IMG/VR virus record: IMGVR_UViG_3300042923_001283
Span: 1-55,253 of that record
Length of the DNA stretch: 55,253 nucleotides
Source of the DNA: a virus
Lineage: Duplodnaviria; Caudoviricetes
Strand: one strand, 5' to 3'
The translations under genes and the position numbers were made by a program. Under the pieces are notes generated by a model. It searched no databases, was not told where the DNA came from, and saw only the letters and a list, made by a program, of their open reading frames with translations. Shown here piece after piece: positions 1-55,253 of this stretch. Every line of letters begins with the position of its first letter. Positions within the stretch are counted from its first letter, which is position 1.

Positions 1-127
1 CGTCATAAAATGACGGTCTTTATCAACTATCGCATCCATTAGTTAAAGTACAATTTTTCACAAACTTCTACCGGAGTTGTAAAAAATTCGAGCATGCAAA
101 GTTTAAGGTACTTATTTAATCTCCAAT
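1..127. repeat. 127-bp exact terminal direct repeat (copy 1); circular-contig overlap
   Basis: Identical to 55127-55253; a length of 127 matches a common de Bruijn k-mer overlap. Confidence 0.95.
18..51 (+). repeat. loxP-like cassette site C
   Basis: CTTTATCAACTAT-CGCATCCA-TTAGTTAAAGTAC; follows hairpin GACCGTCAT-AAA-ATGACGGTC; duplicated at 55144-55177 by the terminal repeat. Confidence 0.6.
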
Positions 128-1857
128 ATTTCCTTCATATATTTTTTAAATGCATCATTTTTCCAGAATCCCAGCCGAATCCCGTCAATTCCTCTAGTCA
201 TCAGAATATAGTAAATATTCAACACAAATAAGGTAAACTCTTGTGCATTTTCCGGGCTTTCATCGTCTTTGGAGAACTTGCCGTTTACATTATGAAAATT
301 CTCTGGATTGCCGAACAACCGACCCTTTGCATCGACTTGAAGATCATTGCCGACTAAAACGCCGACTTTATTCAAATCGATTCCCTGAACTGCAAAGACG
401 GAGCCAATCTGCTCCTCAGCATCGGCCTCCTCCGAATAAATCCAATTTTCTTGAGTTGAATTCCATCTTCGTTTGATATTTCCTTCATGCCAATGAGTGA
501 TAAACGGGTTTTTGCCATCAGCCTGCTTCCAAGGTTCAACTAATCCACCTAGCACTCGGTTTATATGTTCAGGATTGAAATTTCTGTCTTCTTCTACCCA
601 GTCAATCAAACTCTTTAAAGGTTCTGTTTCAAAATATCCAAAATAAGCATCAGCATCACTATCTTGGAACACAGCTCTGTCAAATTTCGAATTAAAATTC
701 GTTTGTTCTAATAGACCTGTATCCTTATACAAAAGATATTTTATGCCATTTACGAAATCTTCTGATGTATAGTTCTTTCCTGCTGGCGCTTGGATTCTAA
801 ATTGAGTTGTTAAGTATCGCTTTACAAAGTCTTTGGTTGCTTCATTGAATTGCGCACGTGTCATATTTGCAGGGCGAATAGCTTGCAATACGTCATACAT
901 TAACACGATTTGACTGCCTATTTTTTTTAAAGCCTCCAAGTGGTGCTCATCCTGGGCAAATCTTCCCTTATAGACTTTGTTAAAAGATGCCATTTGCTTG
1001 GAAAATTTTCTAGAAAGCTTATGAGATTCGTCAACAATTACAACATCATAATTTTCATCGGCATTAATCAGCTGTGTCGAGCTAGCAAGTGTCAGGTTAC
1101 TGTTGTTCATTCCATATACTCTAAAGATATCCTTTGCCGTTTCAATCCAATTAGGCTGCAAAACGACTGCTACTCGCTGATTAGGTTTTTCTTTCAACAG
1201 CTTTGCGACCAAATGAGTCAGCAATACGGTTTTGCCAGTCCCTGCATCGCCATTAATCACAAAGTTTTTATCAGGATACGATATAATCTCCTCAAGAAAG
1301 TCCATTTGCTGGAGTGTTAATACTTTGATTGGGCTATATTTGACCAGTGCTCCATTGCGCAACTTCTCTAAAGTCGGTGTGCTTACCCATCCATTAGGGT
1401 ATAGCTCTTTTTCCCAAAAAGGCAAAATGACTTCTGAAGCAACCTTTTCTCGGTCTCGGTAGTCATTGACGCTGTTGCCATTGGTCCGATTAATAATCTC
1501 ATCATTATCATATTGAACCAGCTGCTTTTTAGATTTTGGATTGTCGGCCATAAAGTAGGTTATCAGCTGGCTTTCGACATCATCTAAGGCTGAACCGTTG
1601 AAATAGGTTGAAATAAGAATAATTACTTGGTCGAAATCTGCTAAATTAAATTTTTCCTCTTGACCATTGTAGTGCTGCTTATTCCGCTCAGTAAAGTGTT
1701 TCGTTTGTCCAATATAAATCTTTTTCGACTTCGTCCCTTTGTAGATATAAACGGCATTGCCATTTTTAAGAATATTTTGTTCAGGCTGGCGAAGTTTATC
1801 AAAACCTTCCAATTCTCCATTTTTCACTTTCAATGGTATACAGTTGTACTTAGCCAT
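112..1857 (-). CDS. GIY-YIG nuclease fused to DUF2075 (Schlafen-associated SF1 helicase); candidate defence protein
   Basis: N-terminal VYIY...IYIGQT GIY-YIG motif, Walker A GDAGTGKT, Walker B VDESH, C-terminal IGSVFAVQGIDL and YYILMTRG motifs. Confidence 0.85.
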   Translation of the reverse strand: MAKYNCIPLKVKNGELEGFDKLRQPEQNILKNGNAVYIYKGTKSKKIYIGQTKHFTERNKQHYNGQEEKFNLADFDQVIILISTYFNGSALDDVESQLITYFMADNPKSKKQLVQYDNDEIINRTNGNSVNDYRDREKVASEVILPFWEKELYPNGWVSTPTLEKLRNGALVKYSPIKVLTLQQMDFLEEIISYPDKNFVINGDAGTGKTVLLTHLVAKLLKEKPNQRVAVVLQPNWIETAKDIFRVYGMNNSNLTLASSTQLINADENYDVVIVDESHKLSRKFSKQMASFNKVYKGRFAQDEHHLEALKKIGSQIVLMYDVLQAIRPANMTRAQFNEATKDFVKRYLTTQFRIQAPAGKNYTSEDFVNGIKYLLYKDTGLLEQTNFNSKFDRAVFQDSDADAYFGYFETEPLKSLIDWVEEDRNFNPEHINRVLGGLVEPWKQADGKNPFITHWHEGNIKRRWNSTQENWIYSEEADAEEQIGSVFAVQGIDLNKVGVLVGNDLQVDAKGRLFGNPENFHNVNGKFSKDDESPENAQEFTLFVLNIYYILMTRGIDGIRLGFWKNDAFKKYMKEILEIK

Positions 1858-1873
1858 TGCTTAATCCACCTCA

Positions 1874-1907
1874 TCCAATTCATTATATTGCTCATTAGTT
1901 GCTTAAG
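1874..1907 (+). repeat. loxP-like cassette site D (degenerate left arm)
   Basis: TCCAATTCATTAT-ATTGCTCA-TTAGTTGCTTAAG, directly upstream of the RBS of 112-1857. Confidence 0.5.
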
Positions 1908-2077
1908 AAAATCAACATTATTCTTTAACCGATCATTTATTTAAAAAACTCTATATTTAAAAGTACACTAACATAAAAATGGCCATCATAAAGATGACCA
2001 AATATCTTCAACAGCTTTCTTTCTGCCCACTTGTATAGGTTAGAATTATGTTTTTATGATATTCCATACAAAATAGT

Positions 2078-3133
2078 TTACATTCCGAAATGTGCTTTTC
2101 TATGACAATTGGGACACAGCGCTTTGGCATTATCTACTGTATCATCTCCATCTTGAGAAAGTGGAACAACATGATGTACTTCAAGGTATGGCGTACCATC
2201 CGATGCTCTTAGAAAAGGTGCTTCATTTCCACAATCCTCACAAATTCCATTTGCTCTTTTCAACACTTCTGCAACGACATCAGGATTTCGTTTATAATTA
2301 GTTGTTATTACTTGGATTATCTGAGGTTTTTTAGGTGCATTTATCAAACGTTTTTTTCTCAATTCTTCAGATGTACCTTTTGATTCTGCAACCTTTTTTT
2401 CTAAATCATTATGATACTCCGTATCCGTAATAGGATTCTCAATAGTGTAATAATCTATTTTTCTTAGCCTAAACCACTTTGACCCATCATCTTCATAATT
2501 AATATCTGAATAGCCAAAAATTCCAGATAAAGTAAGAATAGTATCATTTTTAATAAAAACATAAATAGGTACATTACTCTGTGTTGAGTTGATTATTGCT
2601 TGATTAACTTTGTAATCTGGATCAAATTTATCTCGTAGTGAATAGAGATAATACTTTAACTCTTCCCCATCTTCGATCCATTCGTTGGGATACTTTCCAT
2701 TTTTCAATGTTGCTTTTATAAAGATTGCTTTATTCCTTGGCTTTCCTGGAATAATGTATATACCCGATTGAACATCATATGTTTTTGAAAAAATAGCAAT
2801 ATCCCAAGATGTATATTTTTGTCCGATTACAAAGTCATTTAAGGTAGTAATGTCATCAAAATCATTACTGAATCTTTCTTCAAAATCACTTAAAAGATCT
2901 TCATATGTCCTTAATCCTAGCTTTTTCATTTCCTCATAAACTTTTTTATTAGAAGCATCTGGGGCCTTATCGAATCTTTTCAAATATAAATATAGATCAC
3001 CTGTTTTCCTCATTCTATTAACTAAGGTTTTTGATCTTTGAATACTATTCTTTATAGATTTATCTAGTAAGGGGTGGCTAAGTGCAGGATCATGGACTTG
3101 TGATAATACATATTCTCTCGCCTGGTCTAACAT
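2078..3133 (-). CDS. McrA-like HNH endonuclease with putative modified-base reader domain (type IV restriction candidate)
   Basis: C-terminal RANGICEDC...LEVHHVVPLSQDGDDTVDNAKALCPNCHRKAHFG is typical of McrA-type HNH; central YPNEW...LKYY resembles an SRA/PUA-like domain. Confidence 0.8.
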   Translation of the reverse strand: MLDQAREYVLSQVHDPALSHPLLDKSIKNSIQRSKTLVNRMRKTGDLYLYLKRFDKAPDASNKKVYEEMKKLGLRTYEDLLSDFEERFSNDFDDITTLNDFVIGQKYTSWDIAIFSKTYDVQSGIYIIPGKPRNKAIFIKATLKNGKYPNEWIEDGEELKYYLYSLRDKFDPDYKVNQAIINSTQSNVPIYVFIKNDTILTLSGIFGYSDINYEDDGSKWFRLRKIDYYTIENPITDTEYHNDLEKKVAESKGTSEELRKKRLINAPKKPQIIQVITTNYKRNPDVVAEVLKRANGICEDCGNEAPFLRASDGTPYLEVHHVVPLSQDGDDTVDNAKALCPNCHRKAHFGM

Positions 3134-3221
3134 ATTATTTCCTCCTATATAATCCCTGGGGTGTACATAGAATTCGCTTAGTAAAATGTCCGCCCAAGGC
3201 TGTGTAGATCATATTCGATTT

Positions 3222-3257
3222 CTTATTCACTAAAGCTCACCTTTAGAGTTGCATAAG
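3222..3257 (+). repeat. loxP-like cassette site E (with indels)
   Basis: CTTATTCACTAA-AGCTCACCT-TTAGAGTTGCATAAG. Confidence 0.5.
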
Positions 3258-3399
3258 GATTTACATGTTTATTGAACAATTTCGTCGTATTGTTCACTAC
3301 TATTAGTATTGTTTTATTTTTTAATAAAAAATGTAAGTGTTTTGCAATGCTCTTACTAAGGATCCTTTATTTTTGTATCCCTACAACAATTGATCACAG

Positions 3400-3428
3400 A
3401 AAAAGGCTCATTATGAGAGCCCTTTTCT
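3400..3428. terminator. Probable intrinsic terminator downstream of 3459-4997
   Basis: AAAAAGGCTC-ATTATGA-GAGCCCTTTT hairpin with A/T tracts. Confidence 0.6.
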
Positions 3429-3458
3429 TTGTAAACTAATCTAGCAATTTCTTATATA

Positions 3459-4997
3459 TTATCTAACGGTTATTTTTCTCGTAACCGCTATTTTATTACC
3501 CGATTTATCTGTAACACTATAAATTAATGTATAGGTTCCTTTTTTCTTCGTGTTGACAACACCTGTTACTTTGATTTGGTTTGTCAAGTTTCCATCGACA
3601 TTGTCTTTTGCAGACACTCCTGCTTTTACGTCGAATTTCGCCTTCAGTTTAATCGTCTTAGGAATTGCTCCCGAAATAACTGGCTTTATGTGATCCATAA
3701 CAGTGATTTTTCTTGAAACAACCGCTGTGTTTCCTGATTTATCAGATACCGTGTAGGTTATGACATAAACACCTATTTTCTTTGTATTTACGAAACCTGA
3801 CAACCTGATGGCACTTGTTATGTCGCCATCGTTATTATCAATTGCCATTACGCCTTGAAGGGGATTAAATGTTGTGTTCGCGTTAACTGACTTATTATTC
3901 ACCCCTGATAGGACAGGTTCAACATCATCAATAACGGTTATTTTTCTTTTAACAGTGGTCGTGTTTCCATATTTATCACTAATCGTATATGTTAGTGTAT
4001 AAACACCCTTTTCCGTTGTCACTACACTTCCACTAATATTGATGAAACTTGTTAGGTCACCATCCTCATTATCAATGGCAGATACAGCTGACCTAGCGTC
4101 AAATGGTGAATCTATATTAATAACGGTATCTGTTGCTCCAGAAATAACAGGGGCAATAGTATCTACACTTGGTGTATTTAAGTCTGGAGATAATAAATAG
4201 GGTTTATAGTTTACATAGGCACCAATATCAAGGTCATCATTTTTATCCACTATTAGTTTTTCTATTTTGGTTTCATCAGTCGTACCCCAATAATTTTCTA
4301 CTGCTAAAATGTTCGCTTCCTTTGAGCCATTTGTAAGATATATGGCATACTGATTCGTTTTAAACGTATTATTTTTTATGATAGTAGTTCCTTCTGGAAA
4401 ATTATTTATTAATATATTTTTATTTCCACCATAGAAATAATTATTTAATACATAGGCCGTACTATGCCCCGAATTATATAACCCCTTAAATGGAGCTAAA
4501 ATAATCGGGTCTGCATTAAGAAAAATGTTTTTTTCAATCACTGTATCTCCATTTGCATATGAAAGATCGATCTTGCCAGTGTAATTTAGGGTGGAATTTG
4601 TTAAAGTAAGTTTTGCTCTTGTTTTACATGGTGTCCCTTGGTTAATCATAGAATAATCTATATTAATTTCACTTATGCCTCTAGGTTCTATTTCTAAATT
4701 GTTTAAAGTTACGATCGAATCTTTTTTACCTAAGACATTTATTTTTGAATCAAAAACTTCTATTGTTTTAGCATGACCTTCTACTACTACACCATCTTCA
4801 ATTGTTAAAGTAACATTTTCCCCTACTTGAATATTTCCAGCTAGTTCATATGGTGATTTATCTTTGGTCCAAATAGTGTTTTCTTTTATTCTTCCGCTAA
4901 CTTCAGTACCTGAATTAGCTTGAGCTGGGATATTTGTTTGAACACACATTAGTATTATCATAAAAGATAATACAATTGATACTAATCTTTTTTTCAT
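3459..4997 (-). CDS. Secreted/surface protein with beta-helix-like region and three DUF5011/Ig-like repeats
   Basis: Signal peptide MKKRLVSIVLSFMIILM; three repeats of P(V/I)xSG...A.DN.DG..T..I...G.V.T...G.Y...Y.V.D..GN. Confidence 0.85.
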   Translation of the reverse strand: MKKRLVSIVLSFMIILMCVQTNIPAQANSGTEVSGRIKENTIWTKDKSPYELAGNIQVGENVTLTIEDGVVVEGHAKTIEVFDSKINVLGKKDSIVTLNNLEIEPRGISEINIDYSMINQGTPCKTRAKLTLTNSTLNYTGKIDLSYANGDTVIEKNIFLNADPIILAPFKGLYNSGHSTAYVLNNYFYGGNKNILINNFPEGTTIIKNNTFKTNQYAIYLTNGSKEANILAVENYWGTTDETKIEKLIVDKNDDLDIGAYVNYKPYLLSPDLNTPSVDTIAPVISGATDTVINIDSPFDARSAVSAIDNEDGDLTSFINISGSVVTTEKGVYTLTYTISDKYGNTTTVKRKITVIDDVEPVLSGVNNKSVNANTTFNPLQGVMAIDNNDGDITSAIRLSGFVNTKKIGVYVITYTVSDKSGNTAVVSRKITVMDHIKPVISGAIPKTIKLKAKFDVKAGVSAKDNVDGNLTNQIKVTGVVNTKKKGTYTLIYSVTDKSGNKIAVTRKITVR

Positions 4998-5125
4998 TTT
5001 TTATTTCCTTCCTATATGTATTATTTTCTATTAATTTATTTAGCACCCGTTTAACTTGTTTCAATTATGTATATCACAATATTTCGAAATACTCTTAATT
5101 TTGATAATTAATATGTTCATCTAGT

Positions 5126-5396
5126 TCACTTGTAGTAGGCTCTCAATTGTTTTTCTAAATTCCACTCCTTTGATTTAAGTGTAGATGAACTAAACCAACT
5201 AGCACCTTCCTTTAACCATCGTTATCTATACTCTTCAATCGTTCGTTTCAGGATTGTTCTTACCATCATCATCAAATCCAGGTTGAAACCCACAACAAGG
5301 ACAAATGTTATGCATAGGAAAACCATTTTCATATTATGGTGAGTCTAAATTTGGATACCCACATACAACATAAGTAAATTTCTTTATATAAATCAT
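5126..5396 (-). pseudogene. Degraded cysteine-rich (CPCC-like) small protein gene
   Basis: Reads MIYIKKFTYVVCGYPNLDSP*YENGFPMHNICPCCGFQPGFDDD; a 4-bp AACG duplication shifts the frame to ETIEEYR*RWLKEGASWF...WNLEKQL; two stops and one frameshift. Confidence 0.7.
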
Positions 5397-5460
5397 CTCC
5401 TTTTAACCCTACATTAAAAACCTTAATAATGATAAATTCTACATCATTAGAAATCTTCCT

Positions 5461-5496
5461 CCTTATGAAAGTAAACTGCCCGTTACTTCCATAAGG
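5461..5496 (+). repeat. loxP-like cassette site F (best palindrome)
   Basis: CCTTATGAAAGTAA-ACTGCCCG-TTACTTCCATAAGG; 14-bp arms with 1 mismatch and an 8-bp asymmetric spacer. Confidence 0.7.
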
Positions 5497-5554
5497 AAAA
5501 AGAATTCTTAATTCACTTTTTTATTTGTTCCAATTGGCTAAGATAAAAGAAAAT

Positions 5555-5601
5555 CCTATTAAAGTTTTTATCGTCATTTCAATGAACAGGGGCAATAACC
5601 C
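5555..5601 (+). other. attL-like hybrid site (non-P left half, TC core, P' arm)
   Basis: TC at 5579-5580 then AATGAACAGGGGCAATAACCC, 20/21 identical to 52120-52140; left half unrelated to the P arm. Confidence 0.75.
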
Positions 5602-5625
5602 TTCTCTGCTATCAAGGGATTGTGT

Positions 5626-6258
5626 TTATCTTAAATCCTCTTTTGCGTAAATTTCACAGGATAAGTTATGTTGTTTGCAAATAGCTTTTAGATTATCACG
5701 TCTTAATGGCGTAAATGTGTAAAATACAATAACTGGTTTATGTTTAAATTGTTTTTGGATAGCTATATCTAATTCGGCATATTGTTGGATTTTATTTTTA
5801 TTTTCATTCATGGACTGTGTGCGATCCACTTCTAAAAAGTGATAAATACCATTACGGGTAAATTGAGCATCTGGTCGAATGAATTTAGGTGTATTAATAA
5901 GACCTGTTGGATTTATCTTAATTTCTTGTTCAATTTTCCAATCTGACGGCCTATTATAATAAAGATACATATCATTCCTCAACAGGTGGTGTTCCGCCTG
6001 GAGGTTCCATTTGATCTCTATCGATGTTCCGACTAACTCCCTTCCTTTTGCGTTTAGGTAGTAGACGTTCTTCCCATCGTGATTCTGAATGTGGAGATAC
6101 TCCTTCATTCGGCTTAGGATTTTTAGTGCGTTTCTTTCGTAACCGAGATTGTGAAGCTTTTGGAGCTGCTCCCTGGTCGCAAACTTCATCATCAATAAAC
6201 TCCACAAAATTTCTTCCTCTCGTTTCTTCTTTCGTTCCGTGCTCGTTAACCTGCTCAC
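5626..6258 (-). CDS. Replication-relaxation family (MOBC-like relaxase) protein
   Basis: wHTH-like N-terminus (FATREQLQKLH), HHLLRND and RPDA...FLEVDRTQ motifs; likely GTG start at 6258 after GAGAGGGG. Confidence 0.8.
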   Translation of the reverse strand: MSRLTSTERKKKREEEILWSLLMMKFATREQLQKLHNLGYERNALKILSRMKEYLHIQNHDGKNVYYLNAKGRELVGTSIEIKWNLQAEHHLLRNDMYLYYNRPSDWKIEQEIKINPTGLINTPKFIRPDAQFTRNGIYHFLEVDRTQSMNENKNKIQQYAELDIAIQKQFKHKPVIVFYTFTPLRRDNLKAICKQHNLSCEIYAKEDLR

Positions 6259-40203: not shown

Positions 40204-40764
40204 TCATTTTAATCGCATTATTGCTGAGTCCATCATATCTTGAGTAATTCCGATATAGCGTAATGTGATTGAAGAATTACTATGATTGAACATTTCCATT
40301 AGTAACGCTAAATTGTAAGGATTTTGCCTATAAAGATGATAGCCCCATGTTTTTCTCATAGTGTGACAACCGATTTCTTTTAAACCAAAATGCCGGGCTA
40401 CATTATTCAACATTTTATATGCAGTGCTTCGATCAATAGGTTGTTTTCTTAACCTGCTTTTTGTTTTAATTTGCCTACTTGGAAATAGGTATTCATTATC
40501 ACCTTTACCTTCGATAAATTTTTCAAGATCACTTTTTATCGATGGATGAATAATAAATTTCTTTTTCTTCTTTGTTTTCTGTTCTTGAATATTAACGTGA
40601 GTGCTCTTAACCATTCCCACTTTTAACTGTCGTAAATCACAAACCCTTAAACCGCTATATATTCCAAAACAAAAAAATAAATAATCTCTCATACTTCTTA
40701 ACTTTAAATATTGTTTTACAGCTTCGATTACTTCTGGATCGCGGATAGGTTGAACGAAATTCAT
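40204..40764 (-). CDS. Small tyrosine recombinase (catalytic domain only)
   Basis: SGLRVCD, HTMRKTWGY, FNHS, TLRYIG catalytic residues. Confidence 0.92.
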   Translation of the reverse strand: MNFVQPIRDPEVIEAVKQYLKLRSMRDYLFFCFGIYSGLRVCDLRQLKVGMVKSTHVNIQEQKTKKKKKFIIHPSIKSDLEKFIEGKGDNEYLFPSRQIKTKSRLRKQPIDRSTAYKMLNNVARHFGLKEIGCHTMRKTWGYHLYRQNPYNLALLMEMFNHSNSSITLRYIGITQDMMDSAIMRLK

Positions 40765-50561: not shown

Positions 50562-52088
50562 ATGAGAGTAGCATTATACTACCGCGTTTCTACAAAGCTC
50601 CAAGAGAAACGATTTTCTTTGGCTGCCCAGAAAACAGAGCTCATTGCCTATGCAACTTCTCAAGATTGGAGCATAATAAACGAATTTACCGACGTGGACT
50701 CAGGTGGAAAATTGGATAAGAAAGGATTGAATGCGCTCCTAGACTTAGTTGAAGAAGGTCGTATCGATGTAGTTTTGTGCATTGACCAAAACCGCCTATC
50801 ACGTCTTGATACTGTTTCTTGGGAGTATTTAAAATCCACATTAAGAGACAACGATGTGAAGATTGCGGAACCTGGTAATATCACGGATTTAGCCGATGAG
50901 GACCAAGAATTTATTAGTGATATTAAAAACTTAATTGCTAAGAGAGAGAAAAAGGGCATTGTACGAGCAATGATGCGTGGTAAACGTCAGCGTATGCGTG
51001 AAGGGAAGGGATTTGGAAAAGCTCCGATAGGCTATATATTCAACAAAAAAACCAAAGAGTATGAGATTGATGATAAATGGGCATGGGTCATTCCGATGAT
51101 TGATGATCTTTATTTAAATAGGCAGCTGGGGATGAAATCAATTGGGGATGAGTTGAACAAGGTATCTAGAACTCCATCAGGAACGCTATGGAATGAAACA
51201 CTAGTATATCGTCGATTAATCTCTAAAGCATTCCATGGTGTCATGGAGAAGACTTTCGCTAGCGGGGAGACCATAACCATCGATAGTCTCTATCCTCCAC
51301 TAAGAACGGAAGAAACGTGGAATAAGATTCAAGATGAACGAAAAAAGAGAAGTGTTCAGTTCAAGTCCACCAGTAGGCAACGTGATGACTTGCATATCTT
51401 AAGAAGAACTCTTATCACTTGTGGCGAATGTGGGAGAAAGATTCATCTCTCTCAGCACGGTAACAAAGAACAACCACTCTATTATTTAAAACATGGCCGT
51501 AAGCTTCGGATAAGTGACGAGACTGCATGTGATATAAGCATCAATACAGTTCGTGTAGAAAATAATATTATCATGGCCATAAAAGACATTATCACCAATG
51601 AAGAACTTGCAAAGAATTACATTGACTTGGAAATGGATTCATCTGAAATGATGTTGCTGGAGAAACAGACCAAGAAATACGATACCCTACTTAGAGGATT
51701 ACAAACCAAACTTGATAAGTTAATTGACTTGTATTTAGATAGTGCCTTATCCAAAGAAATATTAGCCAAGAAACAGGCTGAAATTGAAACTGAGATTCAT
51801 ACCATTACCATGCAAAATAAACAGGCTAGAGCAAAGCTAGAGGTCCTCAGAAACAATTCGTTTAATTATGATTTCATTTATGAGTTATTCGAAATTGCTG
51901 AAGGATTTGAAACAGATCTCACTCCACTAGAAAAGGCTCAAGTGATGGGGAGCTTATTTCCAAACGGGTTAATTTTCCATGACAAACTTACTCTAAAAGC
52001 AGTCATTAAAAATGTCCCGATTGATATTGAAATTCCAATCGATCCAGATCCTTACTCTTGGCATCATACCAAAAAGGGCAATATCTAA
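50562..52088 (+). CDS. Large serine recombinase (phage integrase)
   Basis: YYRVST catalytic Ser, DSG, recombinase domain, zinc ribbon CGECG, coiled coil. Confidence 0.97.
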   Translation: MRVALYYRVSTKLQEKRFSLAAQKTELIAYATSQDWSIINEFTDVDSGGKLDKKGLNALLDLVEEGRIDVVLCIDQNRLSRLDTVSWEYLKSTLRDNDVKIAEPGNITDLADEDQEFISDIKNLIAKREKKGIVRAMMRGKRQRMREGKGFGKAPIGYIFNKKTKEYEIDDKWAWVIPMIDDLYLNRQLGMKSIGDELNKVSRTPSGTLWNETLVYRRLISKAFHGVMEKTFASGETITIDSLYPPLRTEETWNKIQDERKKRSVQFKSTSRQRDDLHILRRTLITCGECGRKIHLSQHGNKEQPLYYLKHGRKLRISDETACDISINTVRVENNIIMAIKDIITNEELAKNYIDLEMDSSEMMLLEKQTKKYDTLLRGLQTKLDKLIDLYLDSALSKEILAKKQAEIETEIHTITMQNKQARAKLEVLRNNSFNYDFIYELFEIAEGFETDLTPLEKAQVMGSLFPNGLIFHDKLTLKAVIKNVPIDIEIPIDPDPYSWHHTKKGNI

Positions 52089-52096
52089 TTGTCTAT

Positions 52097-52140
52097 GGGT
52101 TATTGCCCCTGTTTATCTCAATAAACAGGGGCAATAACCC
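52097..52140. other. attP-like site (perfect 20-bp inverted repeat)
   Basis: GGGTTATTGCCCCTGTTTAT-CTCA-ATAAACAGGGGCAATAACCC, 8 bp after the integrase stop; central TC. Confidence 0.8.
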
Positions 52141-52180
52141 TTTTTGTGTATCACGGATTTAAGTACTTTTTTCAAAAATA

Positions 52181-52206: not shown

Positions 52207-52214
52207 ATATGTGC

Positions 52215-52245
52215 CTTATGCAACTAACGCACCCATTAGTGTAAG
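52215..52245 (+). repeat. loxP-like cassette site A
   Basis: CTTATGCAACTAA-CGCACCCA-TTAGTGTAAG; the stop codon of 52236-52490 lies in the right arm. Confidence 0.65.
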
Positions 52246-52490
52246 TGAGTAAATGCATAAACACTAAAACAAAAACAAATAAAGGCAAATATAAATAACA
52301 ATGTTTTGGTAACCTGATATGGCAACAGTCTCATTAAGATGACACCGAATAAAGCGATGATTGCACCGATGATTGAATCAGCTCCAGAACCATCTAAACC
52401 ATCGTTTTCGTGTCTTTTTTTATTATAGGCGAATCCACCATATAACGCTACAAAACCAATCAAAACAGACATTGCACCCAATAAATCCAT
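52236..52490 (-). CDS. Small 3-TM membrane protein
   Basis: Three hydrophobic segments; RBS GGGTGAG. Confidence 0.75.
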   Translation of the reverse strand: MDLLGAMSVLIGFVALYGGFAYNKKRHENDGLDGSGADSIIGAIIALFGVILMRLLPYQVTKTLLFIFAFICFCFSVYAFTHLH

Positions 52491-52576
52491 TATCTCACCC
52501 TATTAATAGCGATACCTTATTTAATAGCTTAATTATACCTGAAATAATGTTTTTTATAACTTGGGGGAATTTCACC

Positions 52577-52610
52577 TTTTTTCAACTAACCTGACCGTTC
52601 GTTGCTTAAG
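52577..52610 (+). repeat. loxP-like cassette site B
   Basis: TTTTTTCAACTAA-CCTGACCG-TTCGTTGCTTAAG. Confidence 0.65.
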
Positions 52611-52618
52611 CAATTTCA

Positions 52619-52687
52619 GTGGAGTAAACATTTCTGCGATTTTGTCTACTCATACGAAAAAGGGACCGTCAAATGACGACCTTCTTT
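52619..52687 (+). repeat. ~65-bp imperfect direct repeat, copy 1 (copy 2 at 55083-55147)
   Basis: 23-bp identical GTGGAGTAAACATTTCTGCGATT followed by similar CTCATA..GAAA..GACCGTCA..ATGACG. Confidence 0.8.
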
Positions 52688-52807
52688 AATTGATGCTAAT
52701 TACATCTTTTAGAACATCAATCGAACTACATATGTTACCATCAAACTATAAACAATGATTAACAACGCAAAAAGTAAATTTATCTATCTGTGGAAAGAGA
52801 TGAATAT

Positions 52808-55036
52808 ATGAAACAGAGTTTCTATCAATGGTGCATCGAAAACGAAAAAGAACAATTATTAACTGAGTGGGATTATGAAAAGAATGATTTAGATGTAAAA
52901 GAAATTGGATATGGTAGTAACAGAACGATATCGTGGATTGGTAGCTGTAACCACGAATGGAGAACTTCTATTAAAAATAGAGTTAGGGGAACTGGTTGTC
53001 CTGTGTGTTATGAGGAAAAAAGCGGTAGGAAGATTGTACAGAGACGCATTTTCAAAAAAGGTATAAACGATCTAGCAACCGAATACCCAGAATTGGTAAA
53101 AACATGGGACTTTAATAAAAACGGGGACTTGCTCCCATCTGAATGTACGAGTGGGAGTCACAAAAAGGTATGGTGGATATGTCCCAAGTGCAATCAAAGT
53201 TATCAAAGTAGCCTTAGTCACAGAACAAGAGGTAGAGAATGCCCATATGAGACATGTCGAAGAGAGAAACAAGCAGAAAATATTAAAAAAGCATTAATAG
53301 AAAGAAGAGGATCACTATTAGAGCATCATCCTGAACTAGCTAACGAGTGGCATCCTTTTAAAAATGGTACATTCACACCTAATGAGATCAGTCCATGTAG
53401 TGATATACACGTTTGGTGGTTGGGTGCTTGCAATCACGAATGGCAGACAACACCAAGTAACAGGGTGCGTATGAATAGTGGTTGTCCTATTTGCAATAAC
53501 AAGGTCATTTTAATTGGATTTAATGATTTAGCTACAACACACAAAAAATTATGTACGGAATGGGATTATGAAAAGAATAGTGATTTATTACCTACAAGTG
53601 TAGTAGGTGGATCAGTAAAACAAATTTGGTGGTTATGTGAAAAAGGGCATAGTTTTAAAGCTTCTGTTAGTAACAGGGCAAAAAAAAATGGTACAGCTTG
53701 TCCCTTTTGCGATATGGAAAGAAAATCATCCTTTAATGAAAAAGTTATTTTATACTACTTGAAATTGTTATTTAACGATGTTCAAGAAAATTTACGCCCT
53801 TATTTTCTTAACAGAAAAGAATTGGATATATTTATTCCGAGCTTATCCCTTGCCATTGAGTATGACGGCGAGTATTATCACAAGAATGCTTTAAACGACA
53901 TAAAAAAGAATGAATTGTGTGAAGAGAATGGGATTGATGTAATTCGGATAAGGGAGCCAAATTGCCCAGTACTACCTAAAAAATTTAATTGTTTTGTGAG
54001 AAAAACATTGAGAGAAAATGAATTGGAGCAATGTGTTGAATTTATCATTGATTATATAAATGAAAAATATAAGTTGGCCTTAGTTGCCGATATAGACTTA
54101 TCCCGTGATCGACCAAAAGTAATGGAAATGTATTTAATATCCGAAAAAGCAAAGTCGCTTGCCTATATGAATCCTGAGCTAGCAAAAGAATGGCACCCAA
54201 TCAAAAACAGGAATCTAAAATCTGAGAAGATTTCTTTTAGCTCGAACAAAGATGTTTGGTGGTTAGGTCTATGTGGACACGAATGGACTGCTCGAGTAAA
54301 CAATAGGATAAATGGAAATGGTTGTCCAATTTGTTATGAATCTACTGGTAGAAAAATCGTGCATAGACAAAGTTTGAATAAAGGAACGAATGATCTAGCA
54401 ACCGTAAATCTTGAGTTAGCAAAAGAATGGCATCCTACTAAAAATGGCAACAAACTCCCATCTGATTTTCTGGTCGGTAGCAGTAAAAAGGTTTGGTGGA
54501 TGGGCAAGTGTAGTCACGAATGGGATGCCAAAATAAATTCCAGGCATAAAGGTACTGGATGTCCTTATTGCATTAATCTGAAAGTATTAAAAGGATTTAA
54601 TGATTTGGAGACCTTAAATCCTCAATTAGCAAAAGAATGGCACCCGAACAAAAATGGTGAACTAAGACCAACAGATGTCACTCCAGGAGTCGGTAAAAAA
54701 GTTTGGTGGTTGGGCAAATGTGGTCACGAATGGGATGCCCAAATATTGAGCAGAAACAATGGAACAGGCTGCCCATATTGTGCAAATCAAAAAATATTAA
54801 AAGGGTTTAATGATTTGGAAACCAAATATCCTCACTTAGCAAGAGAATGGCATCCGACAAAAAACGGGGATAAAAAACCAACAGATGTCATTGCAAATGG
54901 GGACAAAAAAGTATGGTGGCTCGGTGAATGCGGACACGAATGGGATGCCATTATATATAACAGAATTAATGGCAGTAGCTGCCTGATTTGCAGAAAAAAT
55001 AGAAGTGGTTCCCAACAAATGCATTTCAAATTATAG
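52808..55036 (+). CDS. Eight zinc-ribbon (DUF4379-like) repeats around a central Vsr/DUF559-like PD-(D/E)xK nuclease
   Basis: Repeats EWHP.KN...VWW...C.HEW......R..G.GCP.C (4+4); central ELDIFIPSLSLAIEYDGEYYH. Confidence 0.85.
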   Translation: MKQSFYQWCIENEKEQLLTEWDYEKNDLDVKEIGYGSNRTISWIGSCNHEWRTSIKNRVRGTGCPVCYEEKSGRKIVQRRIFKKGINDLATEYPELVKTWDFNKNGDLLPSECTSGSHKKVWWICPKCNQSYQSSLSHRTRGRECPYETCRREKQAENIKKALIERRGSLLEHHPELANEWHPFKNGTFTPNEISPCSDIHVWWLGACNHEWQTTPSNRVRMNSGCPICNNKVILIGFNDLATTHKKLCTEWDYEKNSDLLPTSVVGGSVKQIWWLCEKGHSFKASVSNRAKKNGTACPFCDMERKSSFNEKVILYYLKLLFNDVQENLRPYFLNRKELDIFIPSLSLAIEYDGEYYHKNALNDIKKNELCEENGIDVIRIREPNCPVLPKKFNCFVRKTLRENELEQCVEFIIDYINEKYKLALVADIDLSRDRPKVMEMYLISEKAKSLAYMNPELAKEWHPIKNRNLKSEKISFSSNKDVWWLGLCGHEWTARVNNRINGNGCPICYESTGRKIVHRQSLNKGTNDLATVNLELAKEWHPTKNGNKLPSDFLVGSSKKVWWMGKCSHEWDAKINSRHKGTGCPYCINLKVLKGFNDLETLNPQLAKEWHPNKNGELRPTDVTPGVGKKVWWLGKCGHEWDAQILSRNNGTGCPYCANQKILKGFNDLETKYPHLAREWHPTKNGDKKPTDVIANGDKKVWWLGECGHEWDAIIYNRINGSSCLICRKNRSGSQQMHFKL

Positions 55037-55126
55037 CAATAATACGATTCTAATACTAAGTAGTAAAAATTTTATCTACATGGTGGAGTAAACATTTCTG
55101 CGATTATGTTTTCTCATAAGAAAGAC

Positions 55127-55253
55127 CGTCATAAAATGACGGTCTTTATCAACTATCGCATCCATTAGTTAAAGTACAATTTTTCACAAACTTCTACCGG
55201 AGTTGTAAAAAATTCGAGCATGCAAAGTTTAAGGTACTTATTTAATCTCCAAT
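55127..55253. repeat. 127-bp exact terminal direct repeat (copy 2)
   Basis: Identical to 1-127. Confidence 0.95.

Follow-up and report, generated by a model that had tools for sequence, protein, structure and literature searches.

In this work we present an analysis of a 55,253-nt stretch of viral DNA (positions 1 to 55,253 of IMG/VR record IMGVR_UViG_3300042923_001283, hereafter the window), concerned with the short sites, built of two arms around a C-rich spacer, that separate the genes of its non-phage part. This accessory arc extends from ~52100 through the origin to ~5600 (8.6 kb) and holds unrelated genes, mostly on the minus strand. In our judgement the arc of this temperate soil phage is probably a short, decaying piece of a type of gene-cassette array that is common in Peribacillus and related Bacillaceae and Planococcaceae, the units of which would be moved by recombination at the sites. 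An earlier note, made from the sequence of this DNA, had proposed a cassette-shuffling array of Bacillota; a scan for the site family, homology breaks edged by the sites and the linkage of a recombinase gene to them all support that proposal, with recombination as the mechanism to which they point.

The first 127 bases of the window recur at 55127-55253, which makes the record a circle of 55,126 bp. The six strings named in the earlier note are all present, A at 52215, B at 52577, C at 18 (recurring at 55144 in the terminal overlap), D at 1874, E at 3222 and F at 5462. From the window alone, finding such sites would be marginal. They had been described as imperfect palindromes, which they are in a weak form: a scan of the whole circle for 13-nt arms of at least 10/13 complementarity around a 7-10 nt spacer gave 101 matches, and F, with 12/13, was the sole one of the six to pass. 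An inner palindrome pattern allowing up to 3 mismatches matched 6 times versus 5.3 expected, a number reached by 46 of 100 shuffles. A de novo motif statistic for six intergenic segments showed a modest excess, 87 versus 83.7 ± 1.6 on the same strand (reached by 5 of 100 shuffles) and 92 versus 86.1 on both strands (reached by none of 100).

The family of sites emerges from other genomes. Positions 52394-52502, a 109-nt stretch of a membrane-protein gene, are 97% identical to a Peribacillus frigoritolerans plasmid, where three copies of the motif surround the match; scanning of the whole plasmid revealed dozens, of two types. Type 1 (T1) has arms ..AACTAA / TTAGTT.., like cTTaTTcAACTAA / TTAGTTnnATAAG, around the spacer CCTGCCCCG, and type 2 (T2) has similar arms around CGCACCCG or AGCACCCG. 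Since the spacers vary in length, the plasmid copies escaped a fixed-spacing IUPAC pattern, which was dropped for regular expressions and hidden Markov models (HMMs). Thus the single 13-8-13 family first described holds for T2, while T1 is a separate type with a 13-9-13 consensus; in a census of arm-only matches, 299 of 351 spacers fell into two discrete classes of 9 and 8 nt. The 216-kb plasmid has 33 oriented matches, 27 on the plus and 6 on the minus strand, a few of them attributable to chance. Its annotated genes between 120 and 166 kb are nearly all small, unrelated and on one strand (DinB, GNAT, HAD, methyltransferase, hydrolases), with T1 upstream of each gene, T2 at the gene end and the genes on the strand opposite to the sites.

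Scanning of Bacillaceae bore out a widespread family: in a species-representative genome collection the exact T1 core was found in no fewer than 120 stretches, representing at least 17 named genera. The genera comprise Peribacillus, Cytobacillus, Neobacillus, Metabacillus, Priestia, Fredinandcohnia, Pontibacillus, Pallidibacillus, Lysinibacillus, Viridibacillus, Psychrobacillus, Sporosarcina, Paenisporosarcina, Solibacillus, Ureibacillus, Rummeliibacillus and several Bacillus spp., so that T1/T2 sites span Bacillaceae and Planococcaceae. Within one GTDB family the T1 core occurs in 52 of 67 genomes, a reversed control pattern giving 1 match overall. Peribacillus sp. RS7 (genome G001) has 86 matches versus 0 for the control, distributed over a ~104-kb array, six smaller chromosomal clusters and a plasmid, with uniform orientation in each cluster; in another genome (G041) all 46 matches are on the plus strand of one ~105-kb array. 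Sites scattered at random or in mixed orientation, which would have spoken for repeats of another nature, were not seen: they are clustered, orientation is the same throughout 97 of 103 multi-site loci, and the minority orientation accounts for 6 of 557 sites. Comparison of the array flanks of RS7 and G041 disclosed no shared DNA at E ≤ 1e-30 over at least 400 bp, and no common insertion locus or head structure was identified in them. Junction-like places number 99 in fifteen plasmid records, with none in INPHARED phages. Exact T1 was found in two other IMG/VR contig stretches (L195, L196), beside small accessory genes, in contigs that are not close relatives of the window. In IMG/VR the inner-arm pattern gave 18 single chance matches, none reaching the outer arms or the C-rich spacer, and a 23-nt linker block gave no match.

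The arrays follow a simple grammar, which we derived from 120 loci. A T1 site lies upstream of each gene, at a median distance of 89 nt from the start codon, and a T2 site stands a few tens of nucleotides past the stop codon, sometimes overlapping it. Neighbouring units are joined by a T1-linker-T2 junction with about 40 nt per linker (146 of 199 T1-to-T2 gaps are 25-45 nt), and the linker, when read on the gene strand, forms a short terminator-like hairpin followed by a T-run. Open reading frames (ORFs) lie on the strand opposite to the C-rich spacer in 523 of 700 cases, and T1 and T2 are each often found singly.

Against this background four of the six sites of the window are members of the family. 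HMMs trained only on copies in other genomes, with E-values for the 55-kb window, recognised as T2 both A (52214-52245, spacer CGCACCCA, E = 6e-6) and C (17-54, equal to 55143-55180, spacer CGCATCCA, E = 1.8e-5), and as T1 both F (5460-5500, spacer ACTGCCCG, E = 4.6e-5) and B (52576-52610, spacer CCTGACCG, E = 0.017). All four lie on the plus strand, in intergenic places that fit the array grammar. B has a gapped score of 19 versus shuffle maxima of 12-16, and C bears the AAGTACA..TTCACAA extension seen after many genomic copies. B and F are T1 sites with 8-nt spacers through the loss of one base. No match with E < 1 was obtained in the phage arc, in keeping with the earlier view that it holds no convincing copy. 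Site A and the stop codon of the ORF for a small membrane protein (52236-52490) overlap, as had been claimed, and C lies 67 nt past the stop of a helicase gene; B precedes the start of the membrane-protein gene (52490) by 87 nt, and F lies 69 nt upstream of a small Cys-rich ORF. All sites of the window are on the plus strand and all cassette genes on the minus strand, apart from one inserted gene described below. F, of the six the closest to a palindrome, departs from the genomic copies symmetrically: its inner arms read AAGTAA / TTACTT where AACTAA / TTAGTT is usual, the affected positions being conserved to 96-98% in those copies.

The remaining places are less clear, all on the plus strand. 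D (1874-1907, E = 2.3) retains a T1-like right arm only, at 1895-1907; it abuts the ribosome-binding site of the helicase gene, as the earlier note says, and its left arm is that gene's own 5' leader, conserved in two plasmids that have no site there. E (3222-3257, E ≥ 12) is possibly a decayed T1 with indels, located 88 nt upstream of an HNH nuclease gene, where the grammar would place one, with a gapped consensus score of 13.5-15.5 that falls within the shuffle maxima of 12-16. The spacer-only relic at 5042-5049, flanked by decayed arms, is indeed AGCACCCG, the commonest T2 spacer of the arm-only census (29 copies), at a place predicted by the grammar, although its match is not significant (E = 3.6). 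The T2 expected for the HNH unit is absent from 1908-2077; arm-like and AAGTACA-like pieces without a spacer at ~1955-1985 may be its remnant. Relative to the consensus, the spacers of the window sites show 1-3 changes or lack one base, so the arc may be a relic whose sites have lost the ability to recombine.

Sites B and C together make up a single junction, which is split in the window; in Bacillus sp. OV166 (locus L149) its T1-block-hairpin-T2 form is contiguous, and over 109 nt the B-linker-C junction shares 84% identity with an array junction of another genome. The order of the arc can be read accordingly: A (T2), membrane-protein gene, B (T1); the junction, into which a DUF4379 gene is inserted; C (T2), helicase gene, D (T1 remnant); HNH gene, E (T1?); surface-protein gene; relic (T2), small ORF, F (T1).

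A recombinase gene is physically linked to the sites in host arrays. In RS7 a 279-aa tyrosine recombinase is encoded inside the big array (G001:C1:1198139-1198975), between T1 and the linker with T2. It matches PF00589 with 138 bits, has the sequence motifs RIGE, HQLR, GH and KIY, and finds its best models in XerD, XerC and XerA (~200 bits, below their cut-offs); the integron-integrase models give 96 bits (TIGR02249, cut-off 265) and 57 bits (PRK15417, cut-off 435). Matches with E ≤ 1e-40 were found in 34 of the 67 genomes of the GTDB family. The recombinase association suggested by the earlier note is seen in 21 of 30 fetched loci, where the Xer-family gene lies within 155 nt of T1 or T2; sites stand on both sides of it in 14 of the 30, in two orientation classes, and in Paenisporosarcina and Psychrobacillus loci it follows 77 nt after T1. 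Nine loci with closely related copies of the gene show 95% pairwise identity over 20 nt on the gene-facing side of the T1 spacer versus 58% over 20 nt on the other side, and at the T2 spacer the values are 98% versus 52% (5 loci); the recombinase unit therefore ends at the spacers. Such a gene is absent from the window, which agrees with the idea that its recombinase is encoded elsewhere: the lone PF00589 match is an unrelated small phage-type integrase. At one locus (L166, ~1437) a hybrid site is seen, in which a T2-type spacer is followed by the right arm that in the recombinase unit usually comes after the T1 spacer.

Unit boundaries coincide with the sites also in array cargo. We compared array loci by means of 247 high-scoring segment pairs (HSPs) between different loci, at least 250 bp long and less than 99% identical, counting an end as lying at a site when it fell within 45 nt of the site centre. 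Breakpoints do occur at sites, as had been anticipated: 253 of 939 non-edge HSP ends are at a site versus 6.9% for random positions, and in 11 HSPs all four ends are. At 51 boundary sites the identity is 81% for the inner, shared-side half and 49% for the outer one. Some loci share a lone unit, such as those of a Paenisporosarcina metagenome-assembled genome and Peribacillus sp. BBB004 (90.9% over 636 bp, the sole HSP), or those of P. frigoritolerans and a Viridibacillus sp. (8-kb loci). A search for presence or absence of single units between collinear loci yielded 1 unclear candidate, the 8-kb loci of species representatives being ill suited for this purpose. In the window, the DNA of the helicase gene is 93.6% identical in a Bacillus mycoides plasmid and 85% in a Lysinibacillus plasmid, neither of which has T sites, and the homology to these relatives ends inside the 'spacer' of D, leaving the T1 right arm. 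This single case is what one would expect if a foreign gene had been captured at T1. A distant blastn search with 1850-5700 gave gene-internal matches only, and sequencing-run data, with a ~96% identical helicase relative in one run, short T2-like pieces elsewhere and no joints, were uninformative. One sequencing run contains the entire window and may be its source, with no RNA data set among those listed as containing it.

As to the nature of the sites, the Watson-Crick fraction at the outer-arm positions equals the independent-column expectation at every position, i.e. there is no covariation, and no Rfam family matches the sites. The arms therefore look like half-sites that are read as sequence and not as hairpins. 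Inverted arms around a conserved asymmetric spacer form the core-site layout of a tyrosine recombinase, by which the arms would be bound. The recombination chemistry, the enzyme and the phage's route of acquiring the arc are matters of inference. Each site would be a double-stranded core site, in which inverted protein-binding arms flank an asymmetric crossover spacer, and T1 and T2, with their different classes of spacer, would be heterospecific. Units could then be excised, inserted or exchanged by T1×T1 and T2×T2 crossovers, as in recombinase-mediated cassette exchange. The best candidate enzyme is the dedicated Xer-family paralogue sitting in T1-T2 junctions of host arrays, which would act in trans on the phage; host XerC/XerD, acting on dif-like sites, may be considered besides.

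Several observations weigh against this reading. The site copies in the window are degenerate, and neither D, E nor the relic at 5042 is a significant match. The membrane-gene fragment on the P. frigoritolerans plasmid breaks inside the gene, though at a T2-like site of the plasmid, and the helicase homology stops at its other end 25 nt from C. The T1 side of the spacer census is biased, the loci having been ascertained with the T1 spacer. The HSP set pools paralogous units within genomes with units shared between genomes, and crossover points can be placed only to within a site because the sites themselves are conserved. Since the RS7 arrays are all co-directional with replication and transcription (dnaA at 2.07 Mb), co-orientation of the sites is not independent evidence of directional recombination. 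The distribution of the recombinase is uneven as well: of the 26 genomes that have 10 or more T1 matches, 13 are without it at E ≤ 1e-40, 21 of 41 site-poor genomes do have a match, the nearest tyrosine recombinase in G041 is, among the matches listed, ~1 Mb away from the 105-kb array, and 17 of 51 recombinase matches among those listed have in-frame stops. Arrays without recombinase resemble integron arrays without integrases. Finally, searches of INPHARED and IMG/VR found no close phage relative showing gain or loss of units in a phage.

The irregular presence of the recombinase also gives room to a different explanation, which we regard as unlikely, namely that another enzyme (an IS110-family transposase, of the kind common in the arrays, or an unknown transposase) moves the T1-linker-T2 segment as a miniature selfish element or uses it as a preferred target, the genes and the Xer-like gene being passengers. 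The Xer-like gene is missing from half of the site-rich genomes and the G041 array has none nearby; moreover, RS7 has an IS110-family transposase gene between a T1 and a T2 in two places, relatives with 68-85% identity occur in 7 further array loci, and junctions hold inserts of other kinds, namely a DUF4379 gene (window) and group II intron reverse transcriptases (a plasmid array). Such an element would leave unexplained why inverted 13-nt arms with a two-class asymmetric spacer have the layout of a tyrosine-recombinase core, and why units, that of the recombinase included, end at the spacers and not outside T1-linker-T2. T1 and T2 are also often single, and the IS110 copies look like discrete insertions into junctions.

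Recombination at the sites has further to be set against readings in which nothing moves. T1 and T2 might be expression elements (an operator or 5' element and a 3' stabiliser or insulator) or REP-like palindromes, as their places upstream and downstream of genes, the small hairpin and T-run of the linker on the gene strand and the tracking of transcription by site orientation would allow. We consider this very improbable: the arms show no compensatory covariation and hence no hairpin selection, Rfam offers no match, RS7 has no Y1/RAYT transposase, the sites are confined to arrays and near-identical in many genera, and homology of units breaks at them. That the resemblances in the window are mere chance likeness among AT-rich intergenic sequences is hardly credible. 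It would agree with the lack of enrichment of the naive palindrome pattern (6 versus 5.3 expected), with F as the sole good palindrome and with D, E and the relic not being individually significant; however, HMMs trained elsewhere recover A, C, F and B at E = 6e-6 to 0.017, all on the plus strand and in grammar-fitting intergenic places, and the B-linker-C junction has its 84% identical counterpart over 109 nt in an array elsewhere. Chance is thereby refuted for A, B, C and F, and for D and E it may be the explanation.

The cassette genes of the arc are of different kinds. Between A and B lies a gene on the minus strand for a small membrane protein of 84 aa (52236-52490), with a weak DUF308 match. 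The gene at 112-1857 (-) encodes a protein with GIY-YIG and DUF2075/Schlafen-type helicase domains (Pfam) and weak Nhi/AbiO matches. A 351-aa protein with a C-terminal HNH nuclease domain is encoded at 2078-3133 (-; Pfam) and matches the PADLOC model of a type IV methyl-directed restriction enzyme with 90 bits. The T1 (E) to T2 (relic) interval contains a surface-protein gene with three Ig-like domains (3459-4997, -; Pfam). The cassette between the relic and F holds the small Cys-rich ORF (5222-5393, -), a 53-codon frame with one in-frame TAA and a 36-aa piece without Pfam match, which may resemble CPCC-type small proteins. The earlier description of the cargo as defence and surface genes has weak PADLOC and Pfam matches as its basis.

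The DUF4379 gene (52790-55036) is situated on the plus strand, opposite to the other cassettes, within the T1-T2 linker, and its insertion is flanked by a ~70 nt duplication of that linker. The first linker copy (52611-52695, +) contains a conserved block at 52619-52659 and a hairpin and belongs to a direct repeat (D10) of 90% identity; the second (55083-55142, +), with the conserved block and a terminator-like hairpin, stands right before site C. Pfam recognises eight DUF4379 stretches in the gene product, i.e. eight zinc-ribbon repeats, the last three of which are encoded by 210-nt tandem units that are 77% alike. Among the junction inserts of host arrays, the two IS110-family (DEDD) transposase genes of RS7 are identical (locus L160, 8069-9307, and locus L162, 15450-16688), both between T1 and T2, and the T1-T2 junction may be a target of IS110-family elements. 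The group II intron reverse-transcriptase genes are located at 131850-133178 and 140156-141430 in the array of plasmid NZ_CP085396.1 (L039).

The record itself is classed in IMG/VR as a complete virus with terminal repeats. Phage genes in the window include those of a small terminase, a sigma factor, a replication initiator and an FtsK-like protein, together with a large serine integrase gene at 50562-52088 (Pfam) and one tRNA. With the terminal overlap at site C and the junction, the ends of the circle meet within the repeat-bearing arc; a misjoin driven by repeats seems unlikely because the two linker copies are only 90% alike. At its left border, after the serine integrase gene, the arc has a perfect 17-20 bp palindrome (52098-52156) that could be attP or a terminator. 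The right half of this palindrome with its flank (52115-52156) recurs as direct repeat D11 at the right border (5576-5617), with 81% identity over 42 nt, so that direct repeats enclose the entire arc. In INPHARED, megablast with the arc and with 22 kb of the phage arc as queries gave no relatives, nor did a search of IMG/VR with the serine integrase. The tyrosine recombinase of the window (40204-40764, -; 186 aa, catalytic domain only, near the small terminase gene) was also considered as the enzyme and was rejected. It belongs to phrog_216, a common phage family, and is 22% identical to the array-linked Xer-like protein; it shares 35% identity with the product of a 189-aa gene located 200 bp from T1 on a Peribacillus plasmid, and no consistent link to the sites was found.

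Taken as a whole, the system could be an independently evolved counterpart of integrons in Bacillaceae and Planococcaceae, a proposal to which we give about even chances. In it, chromosomal and plasmid arrays of up to ~100 kb would consist of single-gene cassettes bounded by heterospecific T1/T2 sites and shuffled by an Xer-family recombinase through natural cassette exchange, with phage mini-arrays ferrying cassettes between genera. Full-text literature searches, with subscription papers and supplements outside their reach, found no published description of T1/T2 sites or their arrays. If true, the system would fill a gap in the understanding of how Firmicutes, in which Cury et al. report no complete integrons (PMC4889954), pool and exchange small accessory genes, and it would make that question testable. 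It would further explain near-identical single genes in unrelated contexts across genera and would offer new recombinase/site pairs with built-in heterospecific spacers for engineering of Gram-positive bacteria. Carriage by phages suggests one route of spread, the window and two other viral contigs bearing sites.

Among known systems, REP/RAYT and IS200/IS605-derived palindromes are likewise short intergenic imperfect palindromes in many copies and oriented to genes. In contrast to them, T1 and T2 are clustered in few arrays, keep the same sequence in many genera and show no hairpin covariation; RS7, with its 86 T1 sites, has 0 matches to PF01797, a search that was positive in 6 of 14 control genomes. 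Cre/loxP and FLP/FRT sites have inverted 13-bp arms and an asymmetric 8-bp spacer, much like T1/T2, and two spacer classes flanking a unit correspond to the logic of recombinase-mediated cassette exchange. Here, however, the recombinase belongs to another clade and the sites form natural arrays of hundreds of copies.

The likeness to integrons is closer, and 'integron-like' as used in the earlier note is apt for the behaviour. Both systems have long co-oriented arrays of small, unrelated, mostly single-gene units between repeated imperfect palindromes, sites that overlap stop codons and units common to distant hosts; both have arrays with and without a nearby recombinase, the gene of which is often inactivated. 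IS110-family elements and group II introns lodge at integron sites, similarly to the junction inserts seen here. The term does not extend to membership, as judged by the integrase, the attC structure and the array head. The 279-aa Xer-like protein scores 96 bits against an integron-integrase cut-off of 265, T1/T2 are conserved in sequence across genera without the structural covariation of attC, each junction has two heterospecific site classes and a terminator-like hairpin, and the recombinase lies inside a junction, in either orientation, rather than at an array head. The hosts, too, belong to Firmicutes/Bacillota, a phylum in which complete integrons were not found (PMC4889954).

The dif modules of Acinetobacter form the other close parallel. 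A dif site is 28 bp long; T1 and T2 are set apart from it by their layout, with 34-35 bp arranged as 13-8/9-13 and with spacers of their own. As described in three reports, accessory-gene modules of Acinetobacter are also bounded by two alternating kinds of Xer-type sites, are shuffled between replicons and have insertion sequences targeting the sites (PMC6449649, PMC13141974, PMC10132070). The same reports place these modules mainly on plasmids and attribute the dif-like sites to the housekeeping XerC/XerD (PMC6449649, PMC13141974, PMC10132070). The arrays presented here differ in that they reach ~100 kb on chromosomes and have a dedicated Xer paralogue linked to their sites.

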